From Myxococcales bacterium UBA1203 (GTDB taxonomy: Bacteria; Myxococcota; Myxococcia; Myxococcales; UBA5297), in the NCBI GenBank assembly GCA_002309695.1, contig DBXV01000004.1:36458-100457 (forward strand): a stretch of DNA of 64,000 bases, read 5' to 3'. Within the stretch, counting starts at the first letter, position 1. Every line of letters begins with the position of its first letter. Below the pieces are notes generated by a model. That model was not told the DNA's origin and did not search any database. It was given only the letters and a program-made list of their open reading frames with translations. Shown here one piece after another: positions 11,749 to 30,735 of this stretch. Both the position numbers and the translations under genes were made by a program.

Positions 11749-11796
11749 GAAAATAAAAAAGCGGGCCGATAATCTCGCATGAGACCACCGGCCCGC
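11749..11796 (-). terminator. rho-independent terminator for giant gene A
   Basis: Minus strand: cgggccggtggtctcatgcgagattatcggcccgc followed by ttttttatttt. Confidence 0.65.
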
Positions 11797-11833
11797 TGGG
11801 CATTTTGTTCTGTTATTTCAGCAAGTTAGAAAA

Positions 11834-14800
11834 TTACTGCTCGTAAATCTTCACCTCCACTGGTCCGGCGCCAGTTGTTCGTGTGCCATTGGTAGTGGCG
11901 ACAATGGTCAGAGTCTGACCTGGGCTCATTGTATAGCGAATACAGGAATGATGGCTGCCCTGATAACGCGAATAGCAGGTGGAGTCGCTGCCGTTGTCGT
12001 TGCTAGTATAAGTACTTAATCCACCATATCCTCTCGGCCGGAATGGCGCTGGAACCAAATATAAATAGCCATCAATACCGCTCTGGAACAAAGCCTCGAA
12101 TATCAGTCGCTTGGATGTATCCGAGTCATTGGTAATGGTATAGGCTTTATATGGATATGTATAATTATTGTTATAATATGGTGTGGTAGAAGATCCTCTG
12201 TTCATAAAATAAGGCGATCCGGAGGAGTTATAGGCACCTCCCACCGTATTATCATCGGAATAGTCAGATAATGCGACTGGATAATACGTATCGCTGTCCA
12301 GTCGAATGACCGTATCCGGACAGGTTTCCAGCGTATCACCTACGCCGTCACCGCACGGTGATTCTGCGCAAACAGAAGGCTGCACAATGGAGCAAACATA
12401 CCCGTCCTCCACCTGGCAGTTATCATTACAGCCGTCACCATTGTCCGTATTATAGTCATCACATTGTTCGCCACTAAACATCCTGCCATCACCACAGGGA
12501 TTGCACAGCGAATAATAAACATTTCCATAAGCCTGTCGTCCTAATGAATCTCTGGGTCCCCAGACTGTATTTCCATAGTAAGAATTTGCGCAGTGATACC
12601 CATATTCCACTGTGCAGGAAGAAGAGCAGCCATCATCATCGTAGGTATTGCCGTCATCGCATCCCTCGCCATTGGAATAAATTCTGTCACCGCAGGTGAT
12701 GGGATAACAAATACTTCCGTGCAAATAATGACGCTCGTAACTGATATTATAATACTGCGAAGAAACACACTGCCAGCCGCTCTCCACACCACACGTCGAG
12801 CTGCATCCATCTCCGTCATCTAAGTTTCCGTCGTCGCAGCTTTCATTGTTGCCGCCGGTATAGCCATTACCGCAGACATATTTCGCACATTGTTCCCTGC
12901 ATGTCCCATAAGAACAGGTATAAGTACAATACCCATTCTCCGGCTGGCAGGAGCTGCTGCATCCATCTCCGTCCTCTAAGTTGCCGTCATCACAAGATTC
13001 ATTGCCTGTACGCAATCCGTTTCCGCACCCGGACTTAAAGAGATGCAATGCGCTCTTTCCCGTTTGATTTGTATAATAAGATGTAACAACAATGTATGCT
13101 GTTTCTCCAACGCCAATAACTTTTTCTTTCAGGCTGTTATGATAACCATAATAATAATTAACAGATTGGCTGTTCGAACAGGATGACGAAGGGAACGATC
13201 CTCGATAATAATACATCGAGTAATAATTATAGTAATTGCTCGTAAGCAGCGCATCCAGCTTCTGCTCAGTGCCTGTTTCATTCACGATAGCATAAACATT
13301 ATAATAATAACTTCCTCCTGACAGAGTATTGGAGCAGGTGCGATCCCACCGCCGACTGTCTGTTGTCAGCCTGTCATAAACAATTAAATCCAGGCTGGAA
13401 CCGTCTTTCCACCGATAGGCACAGGAAGAGGTGCAGTTGGAGGACTCCGTTCCATTCAAAGCACCGTCGTCGCACGTCTCGCCGGGGTCCTGAATGCCGT
13501 CGCCGCAGGTGATTCGGCCATTGCGGGTGCAGCTGGAGGTGCAGAGGTCGCCGCCATTGTCTTCCCCCTCGTCGCATTCCTCTCTGGCGTCCCGGATTCC
13601 GTCGCCGCAAATCATGGATGTGCAGTCGAGGCGGCATGTGGCTTCGGGGCTAAATCCATTAGCTGTTCCCTGGTCACACTCCTCGCCGGACTCGCGGTAG
13701 TTGTTGCCGCAATACGCCTCCGTCTGCCCGTCGCAGGTCTTATTGCAGTAGCCGCGGATGCCATTGAAGATGCCGTCGTCGCAGATTTCTCCCTCGTCTT
13801 CGTCCACGCGTCCGTCGCCGCAGACAGGGCCAGTCCCCTTACAGCCGGGGAGGCAGTGGCCATAAGTGCCGTCGTTCACGCCATCGTCGCAGTATTCGCC
13901 GTAATTTCGATCCATGAGGCCATCGCCGCAGCTGGGCAGCTTGCAGTTGGGACGGCAGCGGTTGGGCAGCATCATGTTGTATTCAGTGCCCTCATCGCAT
14001 TCCTCGCCGTTCAGACGCGAAATCATGCCGTCGCCGCAGAAGGCGCCGTATTCGCGGCAGTGGTAGCACTTCTTCTCGCCCTCGCTCGCGGCATAGCGGC
14101 CCGTGTTGACGCCGTCGTCGCACACTTCGCCCTCATCCAGCTCGCCGTCGCCGCAGTAGCTGCCATAGCCCCGGCACTCCAGGCACTTGGGCTGACCGCC
14201 GAAGCCGACATAGGCGCCGGTATTGACGCCGTCGTCGCAGACCTCGTCCGCGTCTTTGATGGCGTCGCCGCAGCCGGAGAGGCGGCAGTTCGTCCGGCAG
14301 ACCTGTTCCGTAGCACCGGCAGCCAGAGGAGCATCCGTGTTGCGGGCGCCATCGTCGCACTCCTCGCCCTCGTCCAGGATGCCGTCGCCGCAGGACACCA
14401 GGTGGCATTCGCTCGCGCCGGTGGAAGCGTTCACCGTGCATTTCCAGCCGTCCATCTGATGGCAGCTTGTGTCACATCCTTGGGTTCCGTCCGGTGTGCC
14501 AAAGTTCTCGATACTGCCGAAGTCGCAGTCCTCACCGCTGTCCACCACGCCGTCGCCGCAGCGGGCAGGGGTGCAGTTGGTGCGGCAGGTCAGGCCAATC
14601 ACGCCGCCGAAATCGCTGTTGGACTGGCCGTTGTCGCAGCGCTCGCCGTCGGTCGTCGCGCCGTCGCCGCAGTAGGGGCCCCAGCCGGTGCAGGCCAGGC
14701 AGCGGACTTCACGCGCATTGGCCGCCCAGCGCCGCGAGTTGTCGCCGTCGTCACAGACTTCGCCGTCGTTGACCACGTTGTCGCCGCACCACGGCAGGCG

Positions 14801-17800
14801 GCAGTTGAGGCGGCACTTGTGCGCGGCGGTGGAGCCGTTGCCGGCCGAATAGAGATAGGGGTTGGTGATGAGGCCCGCGGTTCCAAGGTCGCATTCCTCG
14901 CCCTCGTCCAGATAGCCGTCGCCGCAGGTGATTTGCCGACAGGCAGAGACGCCGCCCATATCCCAGCGGCACATCCAGCCTTCGGCCACGGAGCAGTCGG
15001 CCATGCAGCCGTCCGAGCCGTCCAGCGGCAGCTCATTCTCCAGCGAGCCCGTGTCGCACAGTTCGCCGTCGTCCTTCACGCCGTCGCCGCAGCGGGTGTT
15101 CATGCAGTTGGCGCGGCACCTGGCGTTGGGCAGGTTGGAATTGCCCGAGACGTAGCGTCCCTGAGCGTCCAGAACTTCCGGCCCATCGTCGCAGGACTCA
15201 CCCTCATCGACGATGCCGTCGCCGCACGTGGCCAGAATGCAGGTGGTCCGGCACAGAGAGCCCTCCTGGCCCGGCTCGTCGCTGTTCTGCTCACCCAGAT
15301 CGCACTCTTCGCCGTTGTCCACGACGCCGTCGCCGCAGCGTCCCGGCGTGCAGTCCAGACGGCAGGTGGCATTCGGTTTTTCAGAGTTGCCCGAGACGTA
15401 ATTGCCTCTCGCATCGGTGATTTCCGGGCCGTCGTCGCACTCCTCGTTCTGGTCCCGCGTGCCGTCGCCGCACCGGCGGGCAGTGCAGTCCGTCCGGCAG
15501 GGCACATCGGGGCCATTGCCGTTGGCAGTGCCGTTGTCGCAGCTCTCATTCGGGTCCTGAATGCCGTCGCCGCAGCGGGCGGGCGTGCAGTCTTTGCGGC
15601 AGGACGCGCCCGATTCATTGCTGTTGGCGTCTCCCTCGTCGCAGGTCTCGCCGTCATCCACCACGCCGTCGCCGCAGCTCGCCAGACGGCAGGTTTCGGG
15701 ACGGCAGGTCTCGCCGTGAATGCCGGCCAGAGCGCTGTTGGCGTCGCCCAAATCGCACTCTTCGCCGCTGTCCTTCACGCCGTCGCCGCAGCGCCGCGCG
15801 CGGCAGTTGGTCCGGCAGGGCGCATCCGGCGCTTCGCTGTTGGCCTCGCCCTGATCACACTCCTCGTTCCCCGTGACTTTGCCGTCGCCGCACGAGAGGA
15901 ACTTGCAGGCTTCTCCGCATTCAGCGCCGTCAGTGCCGTTGAGCGCGCCCAGGTCGCACGCCTCGCTCGAATCCACCACGCCGTCGCCGCAGCTGGGCAG
16001 CGCGCAGTTCGTCCGGCAGGCATCCGCCGCCGTGTCGCTGTTGGCATCCCCGTTGTCGCAGGCCTCGCGCCGGTCCTTCACGCCGTCGCCGCACCGGGGC
16101 TTTTGACAGTCAGGACGGCAGGGCGCGTCGGGAAGCAGGCTGTTGCCTTCGGCCGCGTCGCAGGCCTCGCCCTCATCGACAAAACCATCGCCGCATCTGG
16201 GAGCCGTGCAGTCCACGTGGCAGGCGTTCGCGGTCTGGCTGTTGTTCTGGCCGTCGTCGCACTGCTCGCCCTCGTCCTTCACGCCGTCGCCGCACGTGGG
16301 CAGCGCACAGTTCGTGCGGCAGGCATCCGCCGTCGTGTCGCTGTTGTCTCCGCCCTCGTCGCACTGCTCGCCGTCATCTGTCACGCCGTCGCCGCAGCGC
16401 CTGAGCGAACAATCCAGCCGGCACTCCGCATTGGGCGCGTCGCTGTTGGCATCCCCCAGGTCACAGGACTCATCCGCGTCTTTCACGCCGTCGCCGCAGC
16501 GGCGGGGCGTGCAGTCCGTCCGGCACTCCGCGTTGGGCGCATCGCTGTTCTGCTCGCCAAGATCGCAGGATTCGCCGTCATCGACGATGCCGTCACCGCA
16601 CCGCTGGGCTGTGCAGTCCGTCCGGCAGAGGGCATCCGGCTCGTCGCTGTTCTGCAAGCCCAAGTCGCACGTCTCGCCCTCGTCCTTCACGCCGTCGCCG
16701 CACCGCTGAGCGGTGCAGTCCGACCGGCAGGGAACATCGGGCAGGTCAGCATTGCCGGAAACATACGCGCCCTCGTCATCGGCCACATACGCCCCCAGAT
16801 CGCAGGCCTCGCCCTCATCGGTCACGCCGTCGCCGCAATGGGCAGGCGTGCAGTCCGTCCGGCAGGCATTGGCCTCTGTGTCACTGTTCTGCTCGCCCAG
16901 GTCGCAGATCTCGCCGTCATCGACCACGCCGTCGCCGCACCGCTTCACCCGGCAGTCCGGGCGGCAGCGCGCGTCGGGCAGAAGGCTGTTGCCTGACACC
17001 AGCGCGCCGGTGGCCTCGTCAAAAACTTCGGGACCCTCGTCGCAGGCTTCCTCAAAGGCCGTCTCAAAGGCCTCGCCGTTGTCCACAACGCCGTCACCGC
17101 ATCTGGGCAGCGTGCAGTTCGTCCGGCAGGTCAGAGGATCTGTGTCGCTGTTGGCATTTCCCTCATCGCACTGCTCGATGGAGTTCTTCACGCCGTCGCC
17201 GCAGGCCGCGGGAACACAGTTGGGACGGCAGACGGCCTCATCCGCCGCACTGTTGCCCGAGACCCACTCGCCCGCGTCATTCAGAACCTCGGCGCCCTGG
17301 TCACAGCCCTCGTCCGCGTCCTTCACGCCGTCGCCGCACTTGGGCAGCGCGCAGTTCGTCCGGCAGGCGTCCGCCTCTGTGTCGCTGTTCGCCGCGCCGT
17401 TGTCGCAGGCCTCGCCCTCATCCACGACGCTGTCGCCGCACCGTTTCAGCGTGCAGTCTGTCCGGCATTCCGCGTTGGGTTCGTCCGAATTCGCCTCGCC
17501 CAGATCGCAGGCTTCTTCGGAATCGCGCACGCCGTCGCCGCACCGGGGCAGGCCGCAATTTGTCCGACATTTAGCACCCGCGGCATCCGAATTGGCGCCG
17601 CCGAGGTCACAAGCCTCACCTTCATCTACAACACCGTCACCACAGCGCCTGAGTGTGCAGTCCGTCCGGCATTCCGCATTGGGCTCATTGGAATTTTGTT
17701 CACCCAAATCGCACTGCTCGCCGTCGTCCAAGGTTCCGTTGCCGCAGAGAATGTTCACGGGGACAGAGGCGTCCTCTTCTTTCTCTTTGCTGCTTTCATT

Positions 17801-17947
17801 GCAGCCGGGCAGAGCGCAGGCAGCGGCCAGAGAAACAGCCATGACCAATGATGAAATTCTTCCTCGAAATACAAAACGTCCGACAGAGGAAAGAATACCG
17901 GCATTATTTATAGATTTCATTGTCGTCATATCCGTTCTCCTTTCCAT
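11834..17947 (-). CDS. giant (2037 aa) secreted lipoprotein: ~34 tandem Myxococcus-type cysteine-rich repeats (TIGR02232-like, CGDG..D.GE.CD.G) plus a ~530-aa Tyr/Asn/Ser-rich C-terminal beta region
   Basis: Single uninterrupted ORF. N-terminal signal/lipobox (MKSINNAGILSSVGRFVFRGRISSLVMAVSLAAACALPGC). aa ~60-1505 are repeats of the form C(G/R)DG(V/I)xDxGExCDxGxxNS...CRTxCxLP(R/K). The CAYRW transition at nt ~13425 leads into a beta-rich region with four CGNG..E.CDDGN..DGDGCS..C..E.G modules. ATG 17947..17945 overlaps the stop of gene B. Confidence 0.85.
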   Translation of the reverse strand: MERRTDMTTMKSINNAGILSSVGRFVFRGRISSLVMAVSLAAACALPGCNESSKEKEEDASVPVNILCGNGTLDDGEQCDLGEQNSNEPNAECRTDCTLRRCGDGVVDEGEACDLGGANSDAAGAKCRTNCGLPRCGDGVRDSEEACDLGEANSDEPNAECRTDCTLKRCGDSVVDEGEACDNGAANSDTEADACRTNCALPKCGDGVKDADEGCDQGAEVLNDAGEWVSGNSAADEAVCRPNCVPAACGDGVKNSIEQCDEGNANSDTDPLTCRTNCTLPRCGDGVVDNGEAFETAFEEACDEGPEVFDEATGALVSGNSLLPDARCRPDCRVKRCGDGVVDDGEICDLGEQNSDTEANACRTDCTPAHCGDGVTDEGEACDLGAYVADDEGAYVSGNADLPDVPCRSDCTAQRCGDGVKDEGETCDLGLQNSDEPDALCRTDCTAQRCGDGIVDDGESCDLGEQNSDAPNAECRTDCTPRRCGDGVKDADESCDLGDANSDAPNAECRLDCSLRRCGDGVTDDGEQCDEGGDNSDTTADACRTNCALPTCGDGVKDEGEQCDDGQNNSQTANACHVDCTAPRCGDGFVDEGEACDAAEGNSLLPDAPCRPDCQKPRCGDGVKDRREACDNGDANSDTAADACRTNCALPSCGDGVVDSSEACDLGALNGTDGAECGEACKFLSCGDGKVTGNEECDQGEANSEAPDAPCRTNCRARRCGDGVKDSGEECDLGDANSALAGIHGETCRPETCRLASCGDGVVDDGETCDEGDANSNESGASCRKDCTPARCGDGIQDPNESCDNGTANGNGPDVPCRTDCTARRCGDGTRDQNEECDDGPEITDARGNYVSGNSEKPNATCRLDCTPGRCGDGVVDNGEECDLGEQNSDEPGQEGSLCRTTCILATCGDGIVDEGESCDDGPEVLDAQGRYVSGNSNLPNARCRANCMNTRCGDGVKDDGELCDTGSLENELPLDGSDGCMADCSVAEGWMCRWDMGGVSACRQITCGDGYLDEGEECDLGTAGLITNPYLYSAGNGSTAAHKCRLNCRLPWCGDNVVNDGEVCDDGDNSRRWAANAREVRCLACTGWGPYCGDGATTDGERCDNGQSNSDFGGVIGLTCRTNCTPARCGDGVVDSGEDCDFGSIENFGTPDGTQGCDTSCHQMDGWKCTVNASTGASECHLVSCGDGILDEGEECDDGARNTDAPLAAGATEQVCRTNCRLSGCGDAIKDADEVCDDGVNTGAYVGFGGQPKCLECRGYGSYCGDGELDEGEVCDDGVNTGRYAASEGEKKCYHCREYGAFCGDGMISRLNGEECDEGTEYNMMLPNRCRPNCKLPSCGDGLMDRNYGEYCDDGVNDGTYGHCLPGCKGTGPVCGDGRVDEDEGEICDDGIFNGIRGYCNKTCDGQTEAYCGNNYRESGEECDQGTANGFSPEATCRLDCTSMICGDGIRDAREECDEGEDNGGDLCTSSCTRNGRITCGDGIQDPGETCDDGALNGTESSNCTSSCAYRWKDGSSLDLIVYDRLTTDSRRWDRTCSNTLSGGSYYYNVYAIVNETGTEQKLDALLTSNYYNYYSMYYYRGSFPSSSCSNSQSVNYYYGYHNSLKEKVIGVGETAYIVVTSYYTNQTGKSALHLFKSGCGNGLRTGNESCDDGNLEDGDGCSSSCQPENGYCTYTCSYGTCREQCAKYVCGNGYTGGNNESCDDGNLDDGDGCSSTCGVESGWQCVSSQYYNISYERHYLHGSICYPITCGDRIYSNGEGCDDGNTYDDDGCSSSCTVEYGYHCANSYYGNTVWGPRDSLGRQAYGNVYYSLCNPCGDGRMFSGEQCDDYNTDNGDGCNDNCQVEDGYVCSIVQPSVCAESPCGDGVGDTLETCPDTVIRLDSDTYYPVALSDYSDDNTVGGAYNSSGSPYFMNRGSSTTPYYNNNYTYPYKAYTITNDSDTSKRLIFEALFQSGIDGYLYLVPAPFRPRGYGGLSTYTSNDNGSDSTCYSRYQGSHHSCIRYTMSPGQTLTIVATTNGTRTTGAGPVEVKIYEQ
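13425..17770 (-). repeat. coding tandem repeat array (~34 copies x ~126 nt) inside giant gene A
   Basis: Periodic CGDG/CDDG-encoding units visible across the whole interval at both DNA and protein level. Boundaries estimated by residue counting. Confidence 0.7.
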
Positions 17948-20900
17948 TAGTCCTCAGTATAAACATTAACTCTGGCCAGACCGCCGCCTGTCAGGCGTGT
18001 ATCATTGGTTGTCACGACAACCGATACGGTCTCGCCCGGCGCCAATGTATAATGCAGACAGGAATGACCGGTTCCCTGATTGCCTGTGTACGGAGTCTTA
18101 CAAGATTCTTCTGAGCCGCCCCATGTGGATGTCAGCCAGCCTGACCTTGACGAAGGATTAAACGGCGGGGTGAATAATTCGATAACGCCATTTCTCTCGT
18201 ATTTTGCTTCAATAATCAGCGCCTTATATTCAGATGTCGCATTCGTTAATGTGTAAGCGCGGAAGGGCGAGAATCCGCAATTATCCTGATTTTGGCTCTG
18301 CTGACTCGGAGAGCATGAATACTTCGGATAAATATAAGGCGTATCAATGACGCTGTTTAATGTTCCGCCCAGAAGATCTCCTTCTTCCGCCGACAGAGCC
18401 AGAGGGAACTCGGTCGAATTAGTGATCTTTATTCCGCATTCAGCACCTTCCATGACGCCGTCGCCGCAGACATCGGGGCCGCACATGGAGGGCCATGAAG
18501 CTGAACAAATATATCCATCTTCTACTTGGCACGCAGAGCTGCATCCGTCGCTGCCAGCCAGATTCCCGTCATCGCAGCTCTCACCGCCCTTCACCCTGCC
18601 ATTACCGCAGAAATCGCAGGAAGACATGGCAGACCAGACGTGCATGGCCAGAGTGCTGCTGATAGTCTGAGTCAATGTCTGATCTTCAATTGTGCATGAA
18701 GCATTCGCCTCCACTGTACAATCGGCAGCGCAGCCATCTCCATCTGCATTGTTGCCGTCGTCACATTCCTCGTTGCTGTCTTGGAAGCCATCACCGCAAA
18801 TGTTGGCTTCACAATGATTACCCACGTAGAAGCGTGAAACATCATCCGTCATATAAGTATAAACGGCCTGAATACATGTGCGTCCATCCTCGATGGTGCA
18901 GTCGGCAGCACATCCGTCACCATCTTCCCGGTTTCCATCATCGCATTCCTCAAAACCGTCTCTCGAACCATTGCCGCACATGGGGCTTTCAGGCTCAATA
19001 AGCTGATTGGCAGACAGGCATTCCCCGTCGTAGCAGGGGCACATAAGTTTGGTAAAGCCCTCCCAGCACCAGGCCTCGCAGCGGCCATACTCCGACTTGC
19101 AGTCGCTGCTGCATCCATCGCCGTCGATGTTATTTCCATCATCGCATTCTTCACCGTGGTAACTATCCCCATACCAAATAGGATAGCCGTCGGCGCCGCG
19201 TTCCAGATCACGAATGCCATTGCCGCAGCCCGTTTTGGCAATGCGAATCAGACCATGACAATTCTGCATTTCCGAGTAGGAATAGTCATTATCATAGGTG
19301 GATATTATTATGTAAGCGGTTCGTCCCGCAGGAAGGGACATTTCCTGCAAAATACTCTGCCATGAATCCCCGCAGTCATCGTCGTCACCATCATCATTGT
19401 AATTACAGCCATTGTTTGGGAAATTATCCAAATAATAGAAAAGATAACCGTCACAGCTAAAGTTAGCTTTAATATCAATGATCAAATCTTCAGTTGTTTC
19501 ATTAGTCAGAGCATATTTCTGATAGCGATGGGTTCCTGGCATTAGAACATCAGTACACTGGCTGTTGTGCCCATCATACCAATAGGGGCGTTCCCACGTC
19601 GGACTCGATTCATCCAAGGCATGGAAAATCGTCCAACGGGCATTGGGATCAGTCCAGCGATATGCACATTCTGATGTGCAGTTAGAGCCTTCGGTTCCAT
19701 TCAGGTCGCCGTCGTCGCAGGCTTCACCCGGATCCTGAATACCGTCGCCGCAGGTCGCCTCTCCTGCGCGCTTGCAGTCTGTTGTGCAGAGTTCGCCGCC
19801 GTTGTCGCTGCCGAGGTCGCAGTCTTCCATGGCATCTCTGCGTCCATCACCGCACACAATGGAAGTGCAGTCGGAATGGCAGGTCGAAACGGGGAATTCG
19901 CCATTGTAGTATTCGTCATCACACTCTTCTCCCTCATCCACATTGCCGTCGCCGCAGAAAGCCGCCACAGCCAGGCCCGGATCGCTGGAAGAGGTCATGG
20001 CCGTGCAGCTGACATTGCACCTGCCGGGGAGGCCATTGAGGATGCCGTCGTCGCAGTTTTCGATGCCGTTCTGAATGCCGTCGCCGCAGCCAAAGGCCAG
20101 CGCGCTGCAGTTGGACATGCAGTGTCCGTAGGTGCCGTCGTTGATGCCGTCGTCGCACCACTCGCCCACGTCGAGAATGGCGTCGCCGCAGCCGGCAAAG
20201 ACACATGAAGTCCGGCAGGGGGGAACCATTTCAGAGCCGGTCATGGGCGCATCGGTGTTTCCCGCGCCGTCGTCACACTGCTCGCCATTGGAGGGCACGC
20301 CGTCGCCGCAGTAGCTGTTCCACGACTGGCACCTGCTGCAGGTGCGTCCGGCGGCCGTGGGGGAATAGCGGCCTGGCGTGTTCACGCCGTCGTCGCAGAC
20401 TTCGCCCTTATCCGCATCCACATGGCCGTCGCCGCAGTGGGCGTCGAAGGAAGCGCACCCGGGGGCACAGATGGGCGCCTGTCCCGCTGCCGCATAGCCG
20501 CCCGCGTTCACGCCGTCGTCGCAGGCTTCACCGCTGTCCACGATGCCGTCGCCGCATCCGGCAATTTTGCACGTCGTCCGGCAGACAGCGGTGGTCTCGT
20601 GTCCGGTCAGGGGCGCGTCGCTGTTGCCCGCCGAGGTGACGGCGGGATTCGTGACCATGCCCACGGTGCCGTTGTCGCATTCCTCGCCTTCATCCAGCCA
20701 GCCGTTGCCGCAGCCCACTGTCCGGCAGCTGGTGACGCCGCCCGTGACAGAGCACGTCCAGCCGCTCGCCACCTGGCAGGACGCGGTGCAGCCGTCGGTG
20801 CCGTCCAGAGGCTTCGTCCGATCGAGACTTCCAGTGTCGCAGGATTCGCCGGGGTCCAGAACGCCGTCGCCGCAGCGGGCGGCCATGCAGTTCATCCGGC

Positions 20901-23900
20901 AGAGCGCGCCGGGTGCGTTGCTGTTGTCAGATCCCGCGTCGCAGGTTTCTCGTGCATCCACGATGTTGTCGCCGCAGATGACCTTCGTGCAGTCTGCGCG
21001 GCAGGTGGGATTGGCGCCGGCGCCGTTCAGGCGGCCGTTGTCGCATTCTTCGCTGGTGTCCTTTACGCCGTCGCCGCAGGAGGGCAGCTTGCAGTTTTTG
21101 CGGCAGGCTGCGCCTTCCGTGTCTGCATTGCCGGGGGTGGTGACGCCGGGATTGGTAATCATTCCCGCCGTGCCGAGGTCGCATTCTTCGCTGGCATCCT
21201 GATAGCCGTCGCCGCAGATGATGGGACGGCAGGAAGTCGCGCCCGTGGCGCCGACGCTGTCGCAGATCCAGCCATTCCTGACCTGGCACGCGGCGGTGCA
21301 TCCATCCGCGCCGCTGAGCATGGACATGCTGTCGATGCTGCCCGTGTCGCAGACCTCGCCCGGATCCAAAATGCCGTCGCCGCAGCGGCCGGGCAGGCAA
21401 TTCTCGCGGCAGGCGGCACCGGCCGCGTTGGAGTTGGCGGCGGCCAGATCGCAGGCTTCACCGCTGTCCACCACGCCGTCGCCGCACTTGGGCAGCGTGC
21501 AGTCCGGGCGGCACGCTGCGTCGGCCAGATTGCTGTTCTGACGTCCGGCATCGCAGGCCTCGCCGCTGTCCACCACGCCGTCGCCGCATCTGGGCAGCGT
21601 GCAGTCCGTCCGGCACTCAGCATTGGGCGCGTTGCTGTTGGAGGAGCCCTTGTCGCATTCCTCGCCTTCATCCTTCACGCCGTCGCCGCAGCGGGGACGC
21701 GTGCAGTCCGTCCGGCACGCGGAATCCGCCGCGTCGCTGTTCTCTTCACCCAAGTCGCAGACCTCGCCCACGTCGATCACGCCGTCGCCGCAGCGTGCGT
21801 AGGTGCAGTCAGGACGGCAGGTGATGCCGTGGGTGCCGCCGACCGAGGCGCTGTTGGCCTTGCCCGCGTCGCACTCCTCGCCCTCGTCCTTCACGCCGTC
21901 GCCGCACTTGGGCAGCGTGCAGTCCGTCCGGCAGGCCGCGCCGGCCACATCGGCGTTGGCGCTTCCCAAATCGCATTCCTCGCCCGGGTCCTGGATGCCG
22001 TCGCCGCAGCCGCTCCTGAGGCAGCTGCTTCTGCAAATGGCACCGGCCGCGTCGCTGTTGCCGGAGACATAGGCGCCCGTTTCGTCCAGAACTTCCGGCC
22101 CCTCGTCGCAGGCCTCACTGTTCAGGCTGTCCACCACGCCGTCGCCGCAGCGCCGCGGCTGGCAGTCGGGACGGCACGCTGCATTGGCGCGCAGGCTGTT
22201 CATCCGCCCCTCGTCGCACACCTCTGCATGGACGGTTTCAAAGGCCTCGCCCACGTCGATCACGCCGTCGCCGCATCTGGGCAGCATGCAGTTCGTCCGA
22301 CAGGCCAGTGCCGCCGTGTCGCTGTTTTGTTCGCCCTCGTCGCAGTCCTCGGCCGCATCCTTCACGCCGTCGCCGCACTTGGGCAGCGTGCAGTCAGGAC
22401 GGCAGTCAGCGTCGGGCAGCCGGCTGTTGCCCAAAACGTAAGCGCCCGAATCGTCCAGAACCTCTTCGCCCTCGTCGCAGGCCTCATCCGCCGACTTCAC
22501 GCCGTCGCCGCAGCGGGCAGGCGTGCAGTCAGGACGGCAGGCAGCCATCGGAGACGCACTGTTGCCGGCAGTCCACGCGCCCGATTCATCCAGGACTTCC
22601 TCGCCGTCGTCGCAGGTCTCGCCGTCATCAATCACGCCGTCGCCGCAGTGCGCCGCCTGGCAGTCCGTCCGGCAGGCGCCGGAAACCACGTCACTGTTGC
22701 CCGAAACGTAGGCGCCCTCTTCGTCCGTCACGGTCTCGCCGTCGTCGCAGGTCTCGCCGTCATCAATCACGCCATCGCCGCAGTATGCGGCCTTGCAGTC
22801 CGTTCGGCAGGCACCGGCAATCACGTCGCTGTTGCCAGAAACGTAGGCTCCCTCTTCGTCCGTCACGGTCTCGCCGTCGTCGCATTCCTCATCGGCAGAC
22901 TGCACGCCGTCGCCGCAGCGGGCAGGCGTGCAGTCAGGACGGCAGGCAGCCATGGGAGAGAGGCTGTTGCCCGAGAAATAGACGCCGGTCTCGTCCATGT
23001 TCTCAGGCCCGTCATCACAGGTCTCGCCGTCATCAATCACGCCGTCGCCGCAGTGCGCCGCCATGCAGTTCGTCCGGCAGGCGCCGGGAACGGTGTCGCT
23101 GTTGCCCGAGACGTAAGTGTCCTCGTCATCCGTCACGGTCTTGCCGTCGTCGCAGGCCTCGCCCTCGTCCTTCACGCCGTCGCCGCACCTGGGCAGCGTG
23201 CAGTTCGTTCGGCAGGTGTCCGGGAGCGTGTCGCTGTTGCCCGAGACATGGGCGCCCTCGTCATCCAAAACTTCCGCGCCCTCGTCGCAGTCTTCGCCCG
23301 CGTTGGGAACGCCGTCGCCGCACGAGGCCAGACGGCACTCAGGCAGGCAGTTGGCGCCCGGCGCGCTGCTGTTGCCCGAAATCCACGCGCCCGATTCCTC
23401 GTCGAGAACTTCCGCGCCCTCATCGCAGCCCTCATCTGCCGATTTCACGCCATCGCCGCAGCGGGCGGGTGTGCAGTCAGGACGGCAGCTGGCCGCCGGA
23501 GAGAGGCTGTTGCCGGACGTCCATTCGCCCGACGTCTCATCGAGAACTTCCGCGCCGTCGTCACACGTCTCGCCCTCGTCCTTCACGCCGTCGCCGCAGT
23601 GCGCCACCATGCAGTTCGTCCGGCAGGCGCCGGGAATGGTGTCGCTGTTGCCCGAGACGTAAGCGCCCGATTCGTCGAGGACTTCCGCGCCGTCGTCGCA
23701 TTCTTCGCCCTCGTCCTTCATGCCGTCGCCGCACTGAGGAAGGGTGCAGTCCGCCCGGCAGGGAACGTCCTGAATGCCCGGGTCGCAGGCCTCGCCTTTG
23801 TCCAGAACGCCGTTGCCGCACAAAACGGTCGTGGGCGGATCAATCACCTGAATTTTGTCCTCGCCGCACCCGCCGCCGGTCGCCAGCGCCACAACAGCGA

Positions 23901-23976
23901 TGCAGGAACCCAAAAGCGTTTTGAACTTTTTGCAGGCAAACACAGCCTCAGCCTGAGCCCGGAATGCGACTTTCAT
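17947..23976 (-). CDS. giant (2009 aa) secreted lipoprotein, paralog of gene A: ~33 Myxococcus-type Cys-rich repeats plus a ~570-aa C-terminal beta region
   Basis: ATG 23976..23974. Signal sequence (MKVAFRAQAEAVFACKKFKTLLGSCIAVVALATGGGCGED). Same repeat and C-terminal architecture as gene A. The C-terminal last ~50 aa are conserved between the two (SHSC(I/L)(R/H)YT..PG(Q/E)T...V.TTN.TR.TG.G). Stop TAA 17949..17947 overlaps the gene A start (TAATG). Confidence 0.85.
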   Translation of the reverse strand: MKVAFRAQAEAVFACKKFKTLLGSCIAVVALATGGGCGEDKIQVIDPPTTVLCGNGVLDKGEACDPGIQDVPCRADCTLPQCGDGMKDEGEECDDGAEVLDESGAYVSGNSDTIPGACRTNCMVAHCGDGVKDEGETCDDGAEVLDETSGEWTSGNSLSPAASCRPDCTPARCGDGVKSADEGCDEGAEVLDEESGAWISGNSSAPGANCLPECRLASCGDGVPNAGEDCDEGAEVLDDEGAHVSGNSDTLPDTCRTNCTLPRCGDGVKDEGEACDDGKTVTDDEDTYVSGNSDTVPGACRTNCMAAHCGDGVIDDGETCDDGPENMDETGVYFSGNSLSPMAACRPDCTPARCGDGVQSADEECDDGETVTDEEGAYVSGNSDVIAGACRTDCKAAYCGDGVIDDGETCDDGETVTDEEGAYVSGNSDVVSGACRTDCQAAHCGDGVIDDGETCDDGEEVLDESGAWTAGNSASPMAACRPDCTPARCGDGVKSADEACDEGEEVLDDSGAYVLGNSRLPDADCRPDCTLPKCGDGVKDAAEDCDEGEQNSDTAALACRTNCMLPRCGDGVIDVGEAFETVHAEVCDEGRMNSLRANAACRPDCQPRRCGDGVVDSLNSEACDEGPEVLDETGAYVSGNSDAAGAICRSSCLRSGCGDGIQDPGEECDLGSANADVAGAACRTDCTLPKCGDGVKDEGEECDAGKANSASVGGTHGITCRPDCTYARCGDGVIDVGEVCDLGEENSDAADSACRTDCTRPRCGDGVKDEGEECDKGSSNSNAPNAECRTDCTLPRCGDGVVDSGEACDAGRQNSNLADAACRPDCTLPKCGDGVVDSGEACDLAAANSNAAGAACRENCLPGRCGDGILDPGEVCDTGSIDSMSMLSGADGCTAACQVRNGWICDSVGATGATSCRPIICGDGYQDASEECDLGTAGMITNPGVTTPGNADTEGAACRKNCKLPSCGDGVKDTSEECDNGRLNGAGANPTCRADCTKVICGDNIVDARETCDAGSDNSNAPGALCRMNCMAARCGDGVLDPGESCDTGSLDRTKPLDGTDGCTASCQVASGWTCSVTGGVTSCRTVGCGNGWLDEGEECDNGTVGMVTNPAVTSAGNSDAPLTGHETTAVCRTTCKIAGCGDGIVDSGEACDDGVNAGGYAAAGQAPICAPGCASFDAHCGDGHVDADKGEVCDDGVNTPGRYSPTAAGRTCSRCQSWNSYCGDGVPSNGEQCDDGAGNTDAPMTGSEMVPPCRTSCVFAGCGDAILDVGEWCDDGINDGTYGHCMSNCSALAFGCGDGIQNGIENCDDGILNGLPGRCNVSCTAMTSSSDPGLAVAAFCGDGNVDEGEECDDEYYNGEFPVSTCHSDCTSIVCGDGRRDAMEDCDLGSDNGGELCTTDCKRAGEATCGDGIQDPGEACDDGDLNGTEGSNCTSECAYRWTDPNARWTIFHALDESSPTWERPYWYDGHNSQCTDVLMPGTHRYQKYALTNETTEDLIIDIKANFSCDGYLFYYLDNFPNNGCNYNDDGDDDDCGDSWQSILQEMSLPAGRTAYIIISTYDNDYSYSEMQNCHGLIRIAKTGCGNGIRDLERGADGYPIWYGDSYHGEECDDGNNIDGDGCSSDCKSEYGRCEAWCWEGFTKLMCPCYDGECLSANQLIEPESPMCGNGSRDGFEECDDGNREDGDGCAADCTIEDGRTCIQAVYTYMTDDVSRFYVGNHCEANICGDGFQDSNEECDDGNNADGDGCAADCTVEANASCTIEDQTLTQTISSTLAMHVWSAMSSCDFCGNGRVKGGESCDDGNLAGSDGCSSACQVEDGYICSASWPSMCGPDVCGDGVMEGAECGIKITNSTEFPLALSAEEGDLLGGTLNSVIDTPYIYPKYSCSPSQQSQNQDNCGFSPFRAYTLTNATSEYKALIIEAKYERNGVIELFTPPFNPSSRSGWLTSTWGGSEESCKTPYTGNQGTGHSCLHYTLAPGETVSVVVTTNDTRLTGGGLARVNVYTED
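19670..23830 (-). repeat. coding tandem repeat array (~33 copies) inside giant gene B
   Basis: Same periodic CGDG/CDDG units as gene A. Boundaries from residue counting. Confidence 0.7.
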
Positions 23977-24357
23977 CTGCGTCCCCTCTCTCCCCTGAAA
24001 AAGATGCGTTCACTCAATGCAGCTTTTCAAAAGCAGCGGCCAATTCCCCACAAACAGGCGCATTCAATCAAACCGGACGAAAGCAGGGAAGAATTTCCTT
24101 CGTTGCCGAGTCAAAAAAACACGATGTACCGAATTAACGCGCCTGTATTTACAGACGGCACTTTTGAAGACAGGAGAAATAATAAAGAATGGACGCACCT
24201 TCACCTCCCGCCAGGCATCAATTTGTCCTGGAAATTCTCAAAAAATGCGTTGCGCGGTTTTGGTGAATCTGCTGAGTATTTTGTCCAGCAATTCAGCCCT
24301 TCAAAAAGAGAGTTATGTTCTCCTCATTTTTCTCTTCCTTCCCCTCGGAGGTTCCTC

Positions 24358-25242
24358 ATGCCAAGACTTGGACAAACAAATGACTGGGACAACGATAATT
24401 GGGACAGCGGCAATAACGACCAGAATTTGGGAGATAAACTTCAGCATTCGCAGGAAGCGGCCCGTCTGGCGGCGTTTGGCGGCATGGATCGTGTCCAGAG
24501 CGATGGAGAAGCAATAGAATTTCTTGATGATGATAATACAAGCAATACTACAAATAATGTAATTGATGACGAAGATGAAGTTTTTATGGAGAGCCGGCGC
24601 CAATTTATGGGCCGTGTTTACAACTGGATGTTTGGCGGCCTCGCGCTGACGGCAGCGGCGGCGTGGTTTGTTTCACATTCCCAGGAGGCCCTGCAGCTTC
24701 TGATGCCGATTATGGGACAATTGCTGTTCGTGCCATTGGTTCTGGTTATTGTTATGAATCTGTGCATGAACAAAATGTCCGCGGCCGTCATGAGATTTTG
24801 TTTTATTCTTTACGCCGCTGTGACGGGCATCACGTTCGCGCCCATCTGCCTCGCCTACAAAATTTCCTCTCTGGCATCGGCATTTGCCGTCACATCCGCA
24901 ATGTTCGCCGCGCTCAGCCTCTACGGCCACTTCACGCGGCGCAATCTGTCCGGTCTGGGCGCTTTCTGCCTCATGGGCCTCGTCGGCGTGCTTCTGGGCA
25001 GCATCATCAATTTGTTCCTGGGCAATCCCATGGTGGATTTCATCGTCACCTGCTCAGGAATTATCGTATTTGCGGGATTGACGGCCTACGACACCAAAAA
25101 GCTGAAAACTATTCATAAGAATCTTTACGCCCACGGGGGAAATGATGAAAAAACACAGAAAATGGCCATCCGCGGTGCGCTCATACTTTATCTGGATTTC
25201 ATCAATCTGTTCCTGAAACTTTTAAGCCGCCGCAGGCGATGA
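24358..25242 (+). CDS. Bax inhibitor-1/YccA family membrane protein with an unusual ~80-aa Asn/Asp-rich N-terminal extension
   Basis: ATG 24358 with GGAGG 6 nt upstream. C-terminal GALILYLDFINLFLKLL is the family signature motif. Seven hydrophobic helices from FGGLALTAAAAWFV onward. N-terminus MPRLGQTNDWDNDNWDSGNNDQ...DDDNTSNTTNNVIDDEDE is low-complexity and low-GC. Alternative in-frame starts exist (MDRVQSD, MESRRQF). In the ORF track this gene is fused to an antisense shadow ORF (20422..25242). Confidence 0.8.
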   Translation: MPRLGQTNDWDNDNWDSGNNDQNLGDKLQHSQEAARLAAFGGMDRVQSDGEAIEFLDDDNTSNTTNNVIDDEDEVFMESRRQFMGRVYNWMFGGLALTAAAAWFVSHSQEALQLLMPIMGQLLFVPLVLVIVMNLCMNKMSAAVMRFCFILYAAVTGITFAPICLAYKISSLASAFAVTSAMFAALSLYGHFTRRNLSGLGAFCLMGLVGVLLGSIINLFLGNPMVDFIVTCSGIIVFAGLTAYDTKKLKTIHKNLYAHGGNDEKTQKMAIRGALILYLDFINLFLKLLSRRRR

Positions 25243-25253
25243 CTGAGAGGGCA

Positions 25254-25298
25254 TAAAAAAATCCCCTCTCCATATTTGTTTGGAGAGGGGATTTTTTT
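25254..25298. terminator. bidirectional rho-independent terminator between the convergent BI-1 and FISUMP genes
   Basis: aaaaaaatcccctctccatatttgtttggagaggggattttttt: 10-bp stem with an A-run on one side and a T-run on the other. Confidence 0.75.
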
Positions 25299-25324
25299 GT
25301 CAGCATTTCTTTTTATCTGTGAGT

Positions 25325-28228
25325 TTACTTCTTAATACACCGCACCGAAAGCGCCGACGTTTTTGCGGAAACAAACATGTCCATCTTGACGCTGCTCACC
25401 GAGGTAGTCACAGGAATTCTGTTCAAATACATTCCCCAGCCTTCACTGTCGGTGGAGGCATCCGAGGTCCAGAAGGCGGCGACCTCACCAAAACCGAGGT
25501 AAGTCTCCCTGTAATAACCCGCGGGCACCGCTGCAAAACCATAAGTATCAATGCCATTATTGAACAAGCCGCTTTTCCAGCTTTTATCCATTAATTCGGT
25601 CGGGAAGCTGGCGGTATTCAGCAGCGCCTCATATTCGGCTTTTGTCGGCAGCCGCCATCCGGACGGGCAGAAATTTCCGCCGGAAGCTGTATCCCAGTCA
25701 TAGAGCAGCCCATAGGCGGTCATATTATTCTGGTTTCCATTGGGATAAGTATAATCCAAATAAGCCTGTGAATGAGGAACATGATCCACTGTTTTCCTCT
25801 TTCTCTTATAATTCTCGGCCATCCACTCCCGGCCATTGATAATCACGGTTTTATATACATTATTTTCAATATCCTTCACAGAACCGTAGGCCGTGCAGTT
25901 TTCGCCATAGCCGCTGCTGCATTCATCGCAGTCGCTGCCGGTCCACAGTCCCGTGCAGGTGCCGCTCACGCAGTGCCCCGTCTTTTGATCGAGCGTTCCG
26001 TGCGCGCATTTCACACGAATGTCGCAGTTCACGCCAAGCCAGCCCTCGTCGCACGTGTAATCCTTAATGCAGCGGACCGATTTCCCTCTGCTCCGCTTGT
26101 CGTCCATCATACCGGCGCGGGCAGTACCGTCGGTTCCCTTGCTAATCGCCAGTTCCCAGGCGGCATCAAACGCGGTTTCATCCGATTCCGTGGACGTCCA
26201 GAAGGAGGTGGTGCTTCCCAAACCATCGTATGTTCCGTCTTCCCAAAAACCCGCGGGAAGGGCGCCAAAATGATACGTATTCTGACCGCCCCAGCTTTCA
26301 GCCATTAAATTCTTCGCTCCGGCCGCAGTTGGCCCGCCGACATGCGCCAACAGATATTCAAATTCTTCTTTTGTCGGCAAATGCCAGCCGCTGGGGCAAA
26401 CTCTCTTGGCATCATTCCACACATAGAGACAGCCATAGTTTTTAACAAAATCAGGGACCGCCTCGATATTGGCATGGCAGGTAATTGTGCCCAAATCGAT
26501 TTTGTCTGGATTGCTCCCCATGGCCATATTTTCGGCCGTCCAGACGTGATTTCCAATACCGACGATATTGTATTTATTGCCCTCGCCGTCGGTGATGGAA
26601 TCAAACTCCGCGCAGTTGTCGCCATAGCCGCCGTTGCACACATTGCAGTTGGCGCCGGTCCATTTGCCCGAGCATTCATCGCAGTCCCGGCCGGCGAATC
26701 TTTCCTCGCAGCTGCCGCTGATGCAGTGACCTGTCTCGGGATTGAGTTCACCGTGAACGCTGCATTTCTTTTCAATATCGCAGTTTGCGCCCAGCCAGCC
26801 GGAAGCGCACTGGTCGCAGTTCGGACCGTCCCAGCCGGCATCACACGAGGAACATTGCCCGTCGCCGTCCCTGCCCTCTTTACAAATGCCATGCTTGCAG
26901 GTGCATTCACCGCAATTCTCGCCAAAGTGACCGGCCGAGCAGTCCTGATAAGCGCTCTCCATAATGCAGCGGACAGAGAGACCGACCTTGGGTCCATTCT
27001 GATCCAGCGAGGCGGTGTTATAACCGAGCAGCAGGGCGTAGTTGCCGTTGGCTGAGCTCTCCGGCTTCGTTGAGGAAGACCAGAGGAAAGTCACATTGCT
27101 GAAATCATTGATCTCACTTGACCACCACCCCGTGGGCATCGCGCCAAAGCCAAAATCATCCCCGCCCTGATTCTGATAACTTTTCCAGGCGTCCGTTTTG
27201 GCAATCAGCGATAAAAAGACATTGCTGCTCGTTTTATGTTCACCCGCATAAGCCAAAAGGTCGTCAAATTCTTCCTTTGTCGGCAGCCGCCAGCCGGCGG
27301 GACACGCTTTGACGGCATCATTCAAATTATAGAGGCAGCCATATTTTTTAATATAATCTGGATCTTTCGCCGTATCGAAATTGCAGGTCACTTCTTCTTC
27401 ATCCTGCAGGGCCATGCTCTCGGCCATCCACTTCCGGCAGTTAATGGCGGTCGTTTTATACGATTTATTGTCGCGCGTGTCGGTCAGTGACCCGATTGTT
27501 TTATCGGCTATTGTGCATTCATCGCAATTCGCCCCGGTCATCAATGTATTCGCGCACTTATTACAGTCAGGACCGGCAAAATTCGGCTCGCAGCTGTCAG
27601 CCGCGCAGTGACCCGTCTCGGGATCGAGCGTGCCATGGACGCATTTCTTCTCAAAATTGCAGTTTTCCCCGGTCCAGCCGGCGCCGCATTGATTACAATT
27701 ATCGCCCGTCCAGCCGGTATTTTCCTGACACGAAGTGCATTTGCCGGTGCCATTCAGGCCAAGACTCGGCGTGCCGTGCTCGCAGGTCGGCGCCTTGTCG
27801 CAGTTTGCGCCCCAATAATTGCCGGTGCATTCATCACAATTATCGCCAGACCAGCCCGTATTGGCCTCGCACGAAGCGCACTGACCATTTCCATGAACGC
27901 CGACGGCCGGCGTGCCGTGTTTGCAGGTAATTGTATCCTGATCGCAGTTCGGCCCCCAGTAATTGCCGGTGCATTCGCCGCAGTTCGGACCAAAATGCCC
28001 GGCCGCCTCGCATTCGTTAATAACGCCGCCGTCCCCGGAGACCACGCCAGAATCAGTATCCTCATCCGCCGGCTTGTCCCCGGAACCCCCGCAGGCCGCG
28101 GCCGAAATAGATAAGGCGAGTGCTGAAATTAAAATAAGAATTGGATTGAAGCATTTGTGTCCAATAGAGGCGCCATCTGTTCCTCCCCCGTCGTACCTAT
28201 TTACTGCGCTTTTATTATTACACTGCAT
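25325..28228 (-). CDS. large (967 aa) lipoprotein: EGF/laminin-EGF-like Cys-rich modules alternating with three Fibrobacter-succinogenes-major-paralogous (FISUMP, TIGR02145-like) domains
   Basis: I place the start at ATG 28228..28226 (MQCNNKSAV...NPILILISALALSISAAACGG, lipobox) with GGAGG upstream. Repeated GxNCxxCxxGWxGxNC modules. Three copies of ...Y(K/N)TVxI...WMAEN...YG(C/L)LY(N/D)W..A...CP.GW(R/H)LPTK.E(F/Y)..LL...SVRCI(K/M), which is the FISUMP signature. GC visibly lower than flanks. Confidence 0.85.
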   Translation of the reverse strand: MQCNNKSAVNRYDGGGTDGASIGHKCFNPILILISALALSISAAACGGSGDKPADEDTDSGVVSGDGGVINECEAAGHFGPNCGECTGNYWGPNCDQDTITCKHGTPAVGVHGNGQCASCEANTGWSGDNCDECTGNYWGANCDKAPTCEHGTPSLGLNGTGKCTSCQENTGWTGDNCNQCGAGWTGENCNFEKKCVHGTLDPETGHCAADSCEPNFAGPDCNKCANTLMTGANCDECTIADKTIGSLTDTRDNKSYKTTAINCRKWMAESMALQDEEEVTCNFDTAKDPDYIKKYGCLYNLNDAVKACPAGWRLPTKEEFDDLLAYAGEHKTSSNVFLSLIAKTDAWKSYQNQGGDDFGFGAMPTGWWSSEINDFSNVTFLWSSSTKPESSANGNYALLLGYNTASLDQNGPKVGLSVRCIMESAYQDCSAGHFGENCGECTCKHGICKEGRDGDGQCSSCDAGWDGPNCDQCASGWLGANCDIEKKCSVHGELNPETGHCISGSCEERFAGRDCDECSGKWTGANCNVCNGGYGDNCAEFDSITDGEGNKYNIVGIGNHVWTAENMAMGSNPDKIDLGTITCHANIEAVPDFVKNYGCLYVWNDAKRVCPSGWHLPTKEEFEYLLAHVGGPTAAGAKNLMAESWGGQNTYHFGALPAGFWEDGTYDGLGSTTSFWTSTESDETAFDAAWELAISKGTDGTARAGMMDDKRSRGKSVRCIKDYTCDEGWLGVNCDIRVKCAHGTLDQKTGHCVSGTCTGLWTGSDCDECSSGYGENCTAYGSVKDIENNVYKTVIINGREWMAENYKRKRKTVDHVPHSQAYLDYTYPNGNQNNMTAYGLLYDWDTASGGNFCPSGWRLPTKAEYEALLNTASFPTELMDKSWKSGLFNNGIDTYGFAAVPAGYYRETYLGFGEVAAFWTSDASTDSEGWGMYLNRIPVTTSVSSVKMDMFVSAKTSALSVRCIKK

Positions 28229-28436
28229 TATACTGCCTCCATGAAAAAAGCCGGAGAAACTCCGGCCGGGTAAAATCCCCCTGTTGATATTGTCAGGCAA
28301 AAAAAGCGGCGGCGTCTATGGAGGCGAAAAAGGCAAGTCAACCGGGAAACATGCCCCCTTGCCTCCCTGTGCCTGTCTGCGCCATAGCGCCCCGCTTTTC
28401 GTGCCTTTCATCATCACTTTGCCCCGCGAGGCCCCC

Positions 28437-30732: not shown

Positions 30733-30735
30733 ATT

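Follow-up and report, generated by a model that had tools for sequence, protein, structure and literature searches.

Predicted giant stalk-and-tip lipoproteins with low-GC tips between NamZ and BI-1 genes in an uncultured member of the Myxococcales

Our analysis concerns a stretch of 64,000 nucleotides (hereafter the window) from the assembly of Myxococcales bacterium UBA1203 (GCA_002309695.1, contig DBXV01000004.1, positions 36,458 to 100,457 of the forward strand). Within it, at window positions 11834-28300, lies a locus in which three very large genes for cysteine-rich proteins are found together with a gene of the Bax inhibitor-1 (BI-1) family. Two of the large proteins, here called giants A and B, combine a long array of cysteine-rich repeats (the stalk) with a distinct C-terminal module (the tip), and the third carries Fib_succ_major (FISUMP) domains. 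The open reading frames (ORFs) of 2037, 2009 and 967 amino acids (aa) claimed in the initial annotation were all recovered; cysteine makes up 9.3% of giant A, 9.0% of giant B and 6.5% of the FISUMP protein. All three match the classical lipobox pattern [LIVMFWSTAG]2-[LIVMFYSTAGCQ]-[AGS]-C and are predicted lipoproteins, the predicted lipobox cysteine being Cys44 in giant A (Cys35 from Met10), Cys37 in giant B and Cys46 in the FISUMP protein (from Met25).

Giant B (17947-23976) and giant A (11834-17947) follow each other on the reverse strand, each as an ORF without interruption. The stop codon of B and the start codon of A share one nucleotide in TAATG, and the two genes appear to be co-transcribed and translationally coupled. 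The proteins are collinear paralogs over their full length, with 43.6% aa identity. Giant A begins with a signal peptide and the lipobox LVMAVSLAAAC (17801-17947), followed by a stalk of 38 acidic Cys-rich repeats of the TIGR02232/DUF4215 type, in units of 34 or 45 aa (13430-17752). In giant B, the signal peptide, the lipobox AVVALATGGGC and 34 repeats occupy 19945-23976, and the last stalk repeats (codons 1345-1434, 19675-19944) form a transition zone of intermediate composition. Repeat starts of the form CG[DN]x number 43 in giant A and 40 in giant B. The family assignments are far above the cut-offs: 192 and 167 bits against 27 for DUF4215 (Pfam PF13948), and 264 and 276 bits against 20.8 for TIGR02232.

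The tips comprise 531 residues in giant A (codons 1507-2037, 11834-13429) and 575 residues in giant B (codons 1435-2009, 17947-19674). They share 37% aa identity and the same architecture, in which two copies of a domain that we designate X enclose four or five DUF4215 repeats. In giant A, the order along the reverse strand is X at 13037-13420, four DUF4215 repeats at 12320-13036 and X at 11837-12319; the copies in giant B lie at approximately 19250-19670 and 17950-18440. The tip of giant A is rich in Tyr, Ser, Asn and Thr, and the proteins end in ...VEVKIYEQ (A) and ...RVNVYTED (B). The X domain is beta-rich and 130-165 aa long. Isolated copies gave no Pfam match at E <= 10, including PPC, and an X-domain profile gave no true match among the sequences of the PDB, where the matches to WDR5 contained no significant stretch. 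The family itself is large: 549 cluster representatives were found at E <= 1e-3, in which a single protein can hold as many as 8 copies and reach 3398 aa. In a structural model of low confidence (predicted local distance difference test, pLDDT, 54), the best Foldseek match was 5sv5 (E 8e-4). The matches to PPC/collagen-binding structures (5sv5 and 1nqd) had a template-modelling (TM) score of 0.54-0.64 on the target and a root-mean-square deviation of 2.6-4.0 Å over about 102 columns, and the fold of the model thus weakly resembles that of the PPC/collagen-binding domain. In homologs, PPC (PF04151), P-domain or PA14 fill the equivalent places. Silent tip cassettes were sought elsewhere in the window, and none was found.

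To the right of giant B, a divergent spacer of 381 bp (23977-24357, 46% GC), presumed to hold promoters, separates it from the BI-1/YccA-family gene. This gene codes for a membrane protein of 294 aa on the forward strand (24358-25242; GC 50%, fraction of G or C at third codon positions, GC3, 0.59), which matches Bax1-I (PF01027) with 183.5 bits against a cut-off of 34.1 (E 5.7e-54), and falls below the YccA equivalog, an FtsH modulator (NF007765), with 22 bits against 353. Its N-terminal extension of about 65 aa is rich in Asp and Asn. The BI-1 proteins of the clade (window 24358-24560; L083, L084, L087, L091 and L092) have an extension of 40-65 aa rich in Asp, Asn and Glu, in which a QRSQEAARLAAFG-like motif is conserved; typical BI-1/YccA proteins of 235 aa are without it. 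A perfect bidirectional intrinsic terminator, read from the sequence as an A-run, a 13-bp stem and a T-run, lies at 25254-25298 between the convergent BI-1 and FISUMP genes.

The predicted FISUMP lipoprotein is encoded on the reverse strand (25325-28228, with the ATG at 28228; ORF 25325-28300; GC 53%, GC3 0.61) and consists of three modules, each made of an EGF-like Cys-rich spacer and a FISUMP domain. The domain scores 225 bits against 33.9 with the hidden Markov model (HMM) of Pfam PF09603, and 308 bits against 41.65, in three copies, with TIGR02145; it also matches the Pfam Lcl_C model. The protein is plausibly a lectin-like glycan binder. The best non-self matches are 33-36% identical, and those that carry a name (Fibromonadaceae, Fibrobacter) 26-30%. 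The clusters of the closest homologs all lack names. Closest of all is a paralog of 34% identity from the same sample, an EGF and FISUMP gene at another locus, on contig L100 (2766-5225; Logan SRR5324813, the same sample as L001). This paralog has a GC content of 54% and a GC3 of 0.61, its neighbours having 0.82-0.87.

Core genes flank the locus on both sides, as had been proposed. On the left, NamZ, an exo-beta-N-acetylmuramidase, is encoded on the forward strand at 10434-11651 (NamZ_N 3e-79, NamZ_C 1e-51 in Pfam); with a GC3 of 0.84 it represents a flank of normal composition, and it served as the anchor for synteny comparison. Between NamZ and giant A, a spacer of 182 bp (46% GC) holds convergent intrinsic terminators at 11696-11727 (forward) and 11760-11797 (reverse). 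On the right, a histidine-phosphatase-family gene, pyrH and frr lie on the forward strand (28437-30665; GC3 0.68-0.73). The three large genes had also been described as separated only by the divergent BI-1 gene and bidirectional terminators. This is correct for BI-1, which is divergent from giant B, and for the terminator at 25254-25298, but giants A and B overlap by one nucleotide.

The decrease in GC content that had been noticed in the C-terminal regions of the giants and in the FISUMP gene proved to be real and large in windowed GC and codon-usage profiles, and sharper than first described. GC content in 1-kb windows is 46-50% at 11.5-13.5, 17.5-19.5 and 24-26 kb, in comparison to 64-69% elsewhere. 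The background GC3, determined for 39 genes, is 0.80 +/- 0.046. In giant A, the fall in GC3 from 0.80 to 0.45 occurs at codon 1506, precisely where the last repeat meets the X domain, and the tip as a whole has a GC content of 46% and a GC3 of 0.45. In giant B, it falls from 0.82 through a zone of 90 codons at 0.63 to approximately 0.50-0.52, with the change-point at codon 1344. The log-likelihood ratios (LLR) of these change-points were 107 (A) and 96 (B), whereas none of 1000 codon shuffles exceeded 11. The stalks keep native GC3 values (about 0.8-0.9 in A and about 0.8 in B), whereas the first 45 codons of giant A have a GC3 of only 0.30, a low value that runs on from the low-GC tip of giant B. 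At three of the four stalk edges, the change takes the form of a GC3 gradient of 90-300 nt.

This decrease is a synonymous-codon effect. Compared amino acid by amino acid (Tyr, Asn, Asp, Gly, Ser and Thr), the stalks have as high a fraction of codons ending in G or C as core genes, and the tips have a far lower one (for Tyr 0.12-0.29 versus 0.73 in core genes, for Thr 0.38-0.45 versus 0.90). Furthermore, a Vulgatibacter homolog with an X-DUF4215x4-X module has a GC3 of 0.92-0.98 throughout; therefore, low GC is not intrinsic to these domains. The amino-acid composition of the tips was ruled out as the source of the decrease by this control together with the same-amino-acid codon test. Recent homogenisation of the repeats, or gene conversion between them, was likewise ruled out as the reason for the GC-rich stalks, since the stalk repeats are only 62-72% identical in nucleotide sequence. 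Non-coding DNA is affected as well: the spacers of the locus have 38-46% GC, and almost every other spacer in the window has about 53-74%. The spacers around frr (30021-30101 and 30666-31166) have 49-50% GC, and, together with the GC3 of 0.68-0.73 in the histidine-phosphatase gene, pyrH and frr, this makes the right-hand boundary of the low-GC region a gradual one. Overall, the locus reads as a low-GC background with two stalk arrays of native composition, about 4 kb each.

Comparison with relatives was based on two contigs found by exact-protein look-ups, L082 and L083, whose NamZ proteins are 94.5% and 86-87.5% identical, respectively, to that of the window. In L083, an M23 gene, NamZ, a gap of 388 bp and BI-1 are directly adjacent and all GC-rich, with no giant gene in the gap. 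It follows that the 12.7 kb holding both giants are an indel between neighbouring genes. The BI-1 protein of L083 has 55% aa identity to that of the window and a GC3 of 0.89, and the window gene is the positional ortholog of this GC-rich gene beside NamZ; a second, distant BI-1-like gene follows it in L083. The orthologs 65% identical to the window's BI-1 (L091, L092/93) all have a GC3 of 0.59-0.63. Accordingly, the view of BI-1 as an interruption of an island of giant genes was not borne out: BI-1 is the conserved neighbour of NamZ, and the giants were either inserted between NamZ and BI-1 or lost elsewhere. In L082, an ortholog of giant A is present with the same low GC (47%, GC3 0.45). Between NamZ and the 3' end of this ortholog sits a secreted-looking gene of 535 aa (L082 1721-3328, 48% GC, without a recorded Pfam match), at a place where the window has only 182 bp. 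The contiguity of NamZ and pyrH in other genomes, which had been suggested as a test, was uninformative: NamZ matched 530 loci in Myxococcota, and in the best 80 of these no other gene of the window (M23, GAPDH, the giants, BI-1 or pyrH) was found within 10 kb of it.

Between the window and L082, the tip of giant A has a synonymous divergence (dS) of 1.13, about 2.2 times that of NamZ (0.50), and GC3 is 0.45 in both. The ratio of non-synonymous to synonymous divergence (dN/dS) is 0.106, which indicates a functional tip under purifying selection; the tip evolves two to three times faster than the flanking core gene. Low GC3 has been kept in these orthologs, much of whose length is saturated at synonymous sites, in paralogs of 34-37% identity and at the second FISUMP locus. 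On this basis we argue that the low-GC state is old and maintained, and is not that of a recent import still converging on the composition of its host.

The closest homologs of the tip are myxobacterial. Among the sampled X-domain clusters, only two have an organism or product label, and the labels are Myxococcales and "cysteine-rich repeat protein." In P0339, the nearest relative from outside, the junction between repeats and X domain shows the same motif, C-x3-C-x-[YI]-[RK]-W-x-D. Its GC3 is 0.67-0.87, and its X domains are mildly GC-poorer (GC3 0.67-0.72) within a GC-rich gene. A metagenome scan with the tip of giant A retrieved distant DUF4215 proteins only. Judging from its homologs, the tip is myxobacterial by descent.

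The divergence of the giant A tip from its L082 ortholog is not uniform. We counted third-base differences at codons encoding identical amino acids, for which NamZ gives a baseline of 25%. The difference was 54% in columns 1-150 (the end of the first X domain and the first DUF4215 repeats), 37% in columns 151-300, only 12% in columns 301-425 (the core of the second X domain) and 58% from column 426 to the end (the last 40 codons). Fisher tests gave p values of 1e-6 to 0.004 for the outer zones and the core of the second X domain, and p = 0.03 for columns 151-300. One tract is thus younger than the split of the two species and is flanked by far older tracts, which points to homologous exchange between old alleles.

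Based on these results, we propose that the locus is a lineage-variable cluster of stalk-and-tip surface proteins, the tips of which are held at an old low GC and reshuffled by recombination, an explanation that we favor with little more than even confidence. The giant pair fills the indel between NamZ and BI-1. The giants are ancient tandem paralogs, each of which would consist of a lipid anchor, a stalk of about 1400 aa formed by 34-38 disulfide-rich acidic repeats, and a distal tip of about 550 aa that the stalk projects from the cell. This tip would be the specificity module that binds a ligand or partner, so that the giants may be receptors or adhesins, and the neighboring lipoprotein with FISUMP and EGF-like modules would act as a lectin-like binder. 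The stalks keep native codon usage, and the tips stay at a much lower GC, as do BI-1, the FISUMP gene and the spacers. Related lineages have old alleles that have diverged, and homologous recombination between these reshuffles the tips. The AT-richness would come either from an AT-rich allele pool or from escape from the force that maintains GC, be it selection or GC-biased gene conversion. A bolder version, which we consider quite unlikely, is that rumen or gut Myxococcales possess a new class of giant, N-terminally lipid-anchored, polymorphic stalk-and-tip receptors, in which the X-DUF4215-X tips would form an ancient allele pool setting the specificity for partner, prey or host, much as the variable domain of TraA does, and would be kept at an AT-rich equilibrium of their own within a GC-rich gene. 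If true, this would be a natural case of a GC-maintaining force that switches off at a domain boundary.

Several points weigh against the proposed explanation. The mosaic rests on one ortholog pair and 434-465 codons of one tip, and the contrast between stalk and tip on composition and not on divergence, as stalk sequences of the relatives were unavailable. Gain of the giants in the lineage of the window and their loss in L083 are indistinguishable. The data show no mechanism by which a sharp step in GC3 could persist within one gene for as long as the 55-63% aa divergence between A and B took. The model of the X domain is poor (pLDDT 54), and the domain has neither an HMM match to PPC nor a sequence match in the PDB. 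All functions named here are predictions from sequence, and DUF4215 has no known function (10.1101/2023.03.06.531300). Finally, the FISUMP family, with named matches of 26-30% identity, may have a distant origin in Fibrobacterota.

The initial annotation had read the locus as a horizontally influenced surface-protein island. Atypical composition, surface-type proteins, the differences between L082 and L083 and the recombination mosaic of the tip speak for such an influence, but a single foreign block of 16 kb is contradicted by the two native 4-kb stalks, and a recent import of the low-GC parts does not fit either. A classical genomic island would imply the recent acquisition of the block, or of its low-GC parts, from a low-GC rumen donor, e.g., Fibrobacterota or Bacteroidota. 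Low GC in both coding and non-coding DNA, sharp boundaries, differences in presence between relatives, the occurrence of the organism in bovine rumen data, and a FISUMP domain that is typical of Fibrobacter and has its named distant matches in Fibromonadaceae and Fibrobacter would all be expected from such an event. Of the features of classical islands, atypical composition and variable presence in relatives were found at the locus; integrase, transposase and tRNA features were not, and no search aimed at flanking direct repeats was made. In agreement with the earlier statement that no integrase or transposase occurs and that the tRNA genes are distant, neither was detected among the genes scanned at 1.1-36.7 kb, and an Rfam search of the whole window revealed two tRNAs only (3910-4082). 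Searches of the giant tip against plasmids and of the FISUMP protein against phages matched nothing relevant. The native stalks within the block, the positional orthology of BI-1, and the myxobacterial tip homologs with the same domain junction all argue against a recent acquisition. So do the low GC3, which is unchanged across largely saturated orthologs (dS ~1.1) and across 34-37%-identical paralogs at two loci, and the identity of only 33-36% in the best non-self FISUMP matches. We therefore regard an island of this kind as improbable.

A drift toward AT in situ, in which AT-biased mutation acts on fast-evolving, lineage-specific segments where the GC-keeping force (codon selection or GC-biased gene conversion) is absent, would leave these segments close to mutational equilibrium and require no exchange at all. 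It would account for the stable low GC3 of diverged orthologs and paralogs, the dS about 2.2 times that of NamZ, the intermediate GC3 of the X domains in P0339 and the fact that three of the four stalk edges are gradients of 90-300 nt; a study is also said to have linked recombination and GC3 in bacteria. However, such drift leaves unexplained the GC3 step of 0.35 inside one unit of transcription and translation, as well as the GC-rich stalks, the repeats of which are too diverged (62-72%) for frequent conversion. Moreover, the tip recombines, with a tract of 125 codons less diverged than NamZ between saturated tracts, and drift on its own appears unlikely to us. A polymorphic toxin of the Rhs/CdiA type, with a GC-rich core delivering an exchangeable AT-rich toxin and immunity genes downstream, is suggested by the GC-rich core and AT-rich C-terminal extension in one ORF, the classical signature of Rhs (PMC7259588), and by a tip that is variable and recombining. 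We consider it very improbable: the searches revealed no family of the RHS/YD, toxin or immunity kind, the tip consists of 530-575 aa of DUF4215 repeats and domains modelled as beta-sandwiches, its architecture recurs in many myxobacterial proteins that are not toxin-like, and no slot for an immunity ORF exists after B, the stop of which overlaps the start of A, or after A, which is followed by a terminator and NamZ. An assembly artefact, with the GC steps marking places where a metagenome-assembled genome was stitched together from contigs of different organisms, could be suspected from a chimeric contig of the same locus in another assembly (L101) and from the way in which other assemblies break at the giants (both L001 and L082 stop within them). 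Its probability seems to us very low. Both frames cross the steps without interruption, over 2037 and 2009 codons, where AT-rich sequence would otherwise contain many stops; the same step occurs at homologous positions in A and B; and the junction between repeats and X domain is the same in P0339. In addition, L001, which is 100% identical, spans the joins from the 5' part of giant B through BI-1 and FISUMP to pyrH, and L082 spans that from the tip of giant A to NamZ.

The proposed stalk-and-tip explanation has parallels in known systems. The nearest characterised protein with such repeats is TraA of Myxococcus xanthus, a polymorphic receptor for kin recognition in outer-membrane exchange. It combines Cys-rich repeats with a polymorphic beta-sandwich domain that sets the specificity of recognition, and the phylogeny of this domain suggests that alleles have been exchanged horizontally and shuffled (PMC6372800). 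The giants share the type of Cys-rich repeat with TraA, and the tip of giant A likewise evolves faster and is a recombination mosaic. TraA, however, is small, has an N-terminal PA14-like variable domain and a C-terminal MYXO-CTERM anchor, and works with the adjacent TraB, whereas the giants have an N-terminal lipobox as their anchor, a C-terminal variable module and 34-38 repeats. Giants A and B gave no hit to PA14 (PF07691) and none to the MYXO-CTERM models of NCBIfam, and they have no TraB neighbor (a beta-barrel protein with TSP3 repeats and OmpA), the neighbors being NamZ, BI-1 and FISUMP. As none of the tested features of TraA is found in the giants, the analogy would be a functional one only. 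We know of no report of a compositional step in traA.

Such a step is known from the Rhs elements of Escherichia coli, in which a long ORF has a GC-rich conserved core and an AT-rich variable C-terminal extension that is swapped by recombination (PMC7259588). The giants resemble Rhs in the step between core and tip (GC3 0.80 to 0.45 and 0.82 to 0.52), but this is a resemblance only: they lack YD/RHS repeats, a toxin domain, and immunity or orphan cassettes, and the outlier in composition is the core in Rhs and the tip in the giants. By their scores, the giants belong to the DUF4215/TIGR02232 proteins, which are of an extracellular adhesive type and include Ca5255 of diatom adhesive trails. Most DUF4215 relatives in databases have 600-950 aa, whereas the giants have about 40 repeats each plus the X-DUF4215-X tip. 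The FISUMP protein of the window has three domains, a lipoprotein signal and multiple paralogs in common with the FISUMP lipoproteins of Fibrobacter succinogenes; it differs in its occurrence in a myxobacterium, in its EGF/laminin-type Cys-rich spacers and in an identity of 26-30% to the Fibrobacterota proteins. The PPC/collagen-binding domains of clostridial and Bacillus collagenases have about 100 aa, against 130-165 aa in X, and no match was found at the sequence level.

If the stalk-and-tip explanation holds, it would provide an architecture and a testable role, a distal specificity module on a disulfide-rich stalk, for the large family of Cys-rich repeat proteins in myxobacteria, which has no known function, and would define X as a beta-sandwich domain that lacks annotation and occurs in 549 or more protein clusters. 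A GC3 step of about 0.35 maintained within one functional gene, in two anciently diverged paralogs and their orthologs, would also be a convenient test bed for what keeps bacterial GC high, whether selection, GC-biased gene conversion or the structure of allele pools. For the calling of islands, the locus advises caution, as its low GC appears to reflect old, maintained and recombining surface segments together with a positional ortholog of BI-1, and not a recent insertion.

Heterogeneity of GC content may be general in this group. In L087 and L088 (ENA/JGI contigs with a 41%-identical BI-1; about 13-19 kb), patches of 43-55% GC occur in a background of 64-70% GC; some of these patches hold ddrB-ParB and AllG-family genes. 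L085 ends in a low-GC gene of the transposase-type helix-turn-helix (HTH) kind. To the left of NamZ, a forward-strand ORF of 195 aa (8726-9313) represents the N-terminal half of phosphoglycerate kinase (Pfam PGK 1-174 of 379, 3e-36). It follows the GAPDH gene (7414-8583) and precedes the M23 gene (9411), and the C-terminal half is absent in all frames up to 9.8 kb. The ORF is probably a truncated pgk marking a rearrangement breakpoint at about 9.3 kb.

The host is an uncultured member of the Myxococcales with about 65% GC, from the rumen or gut. The best NamZ matches are metagenome-assembled genomes from the gut, including one from sheep colon, at 78%. Contig L101 (ENA ERZ909612, SRR094424, bovine gut metagenome, 1-1865) is a chimera of five window pieces (16545-16595, 18987-19495, 21853-22225, 24834-25251 and 27719-28238) that are 99.7-100% identical to the window, which places the organism in the bovine rumen or gut. 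Since it is a chimeric assembly of these pieces, L101 was rejected as a candidate junction between the tip of giant B and BI-1. Elsewhere in the window, the forward-strand ORF at 56042-57895 has a GC3 change-point with an LLR of 25.7, against at most 9.6 in the other control ORFs tested, which may come from a mis-called frame or from a smaller second mosaic.

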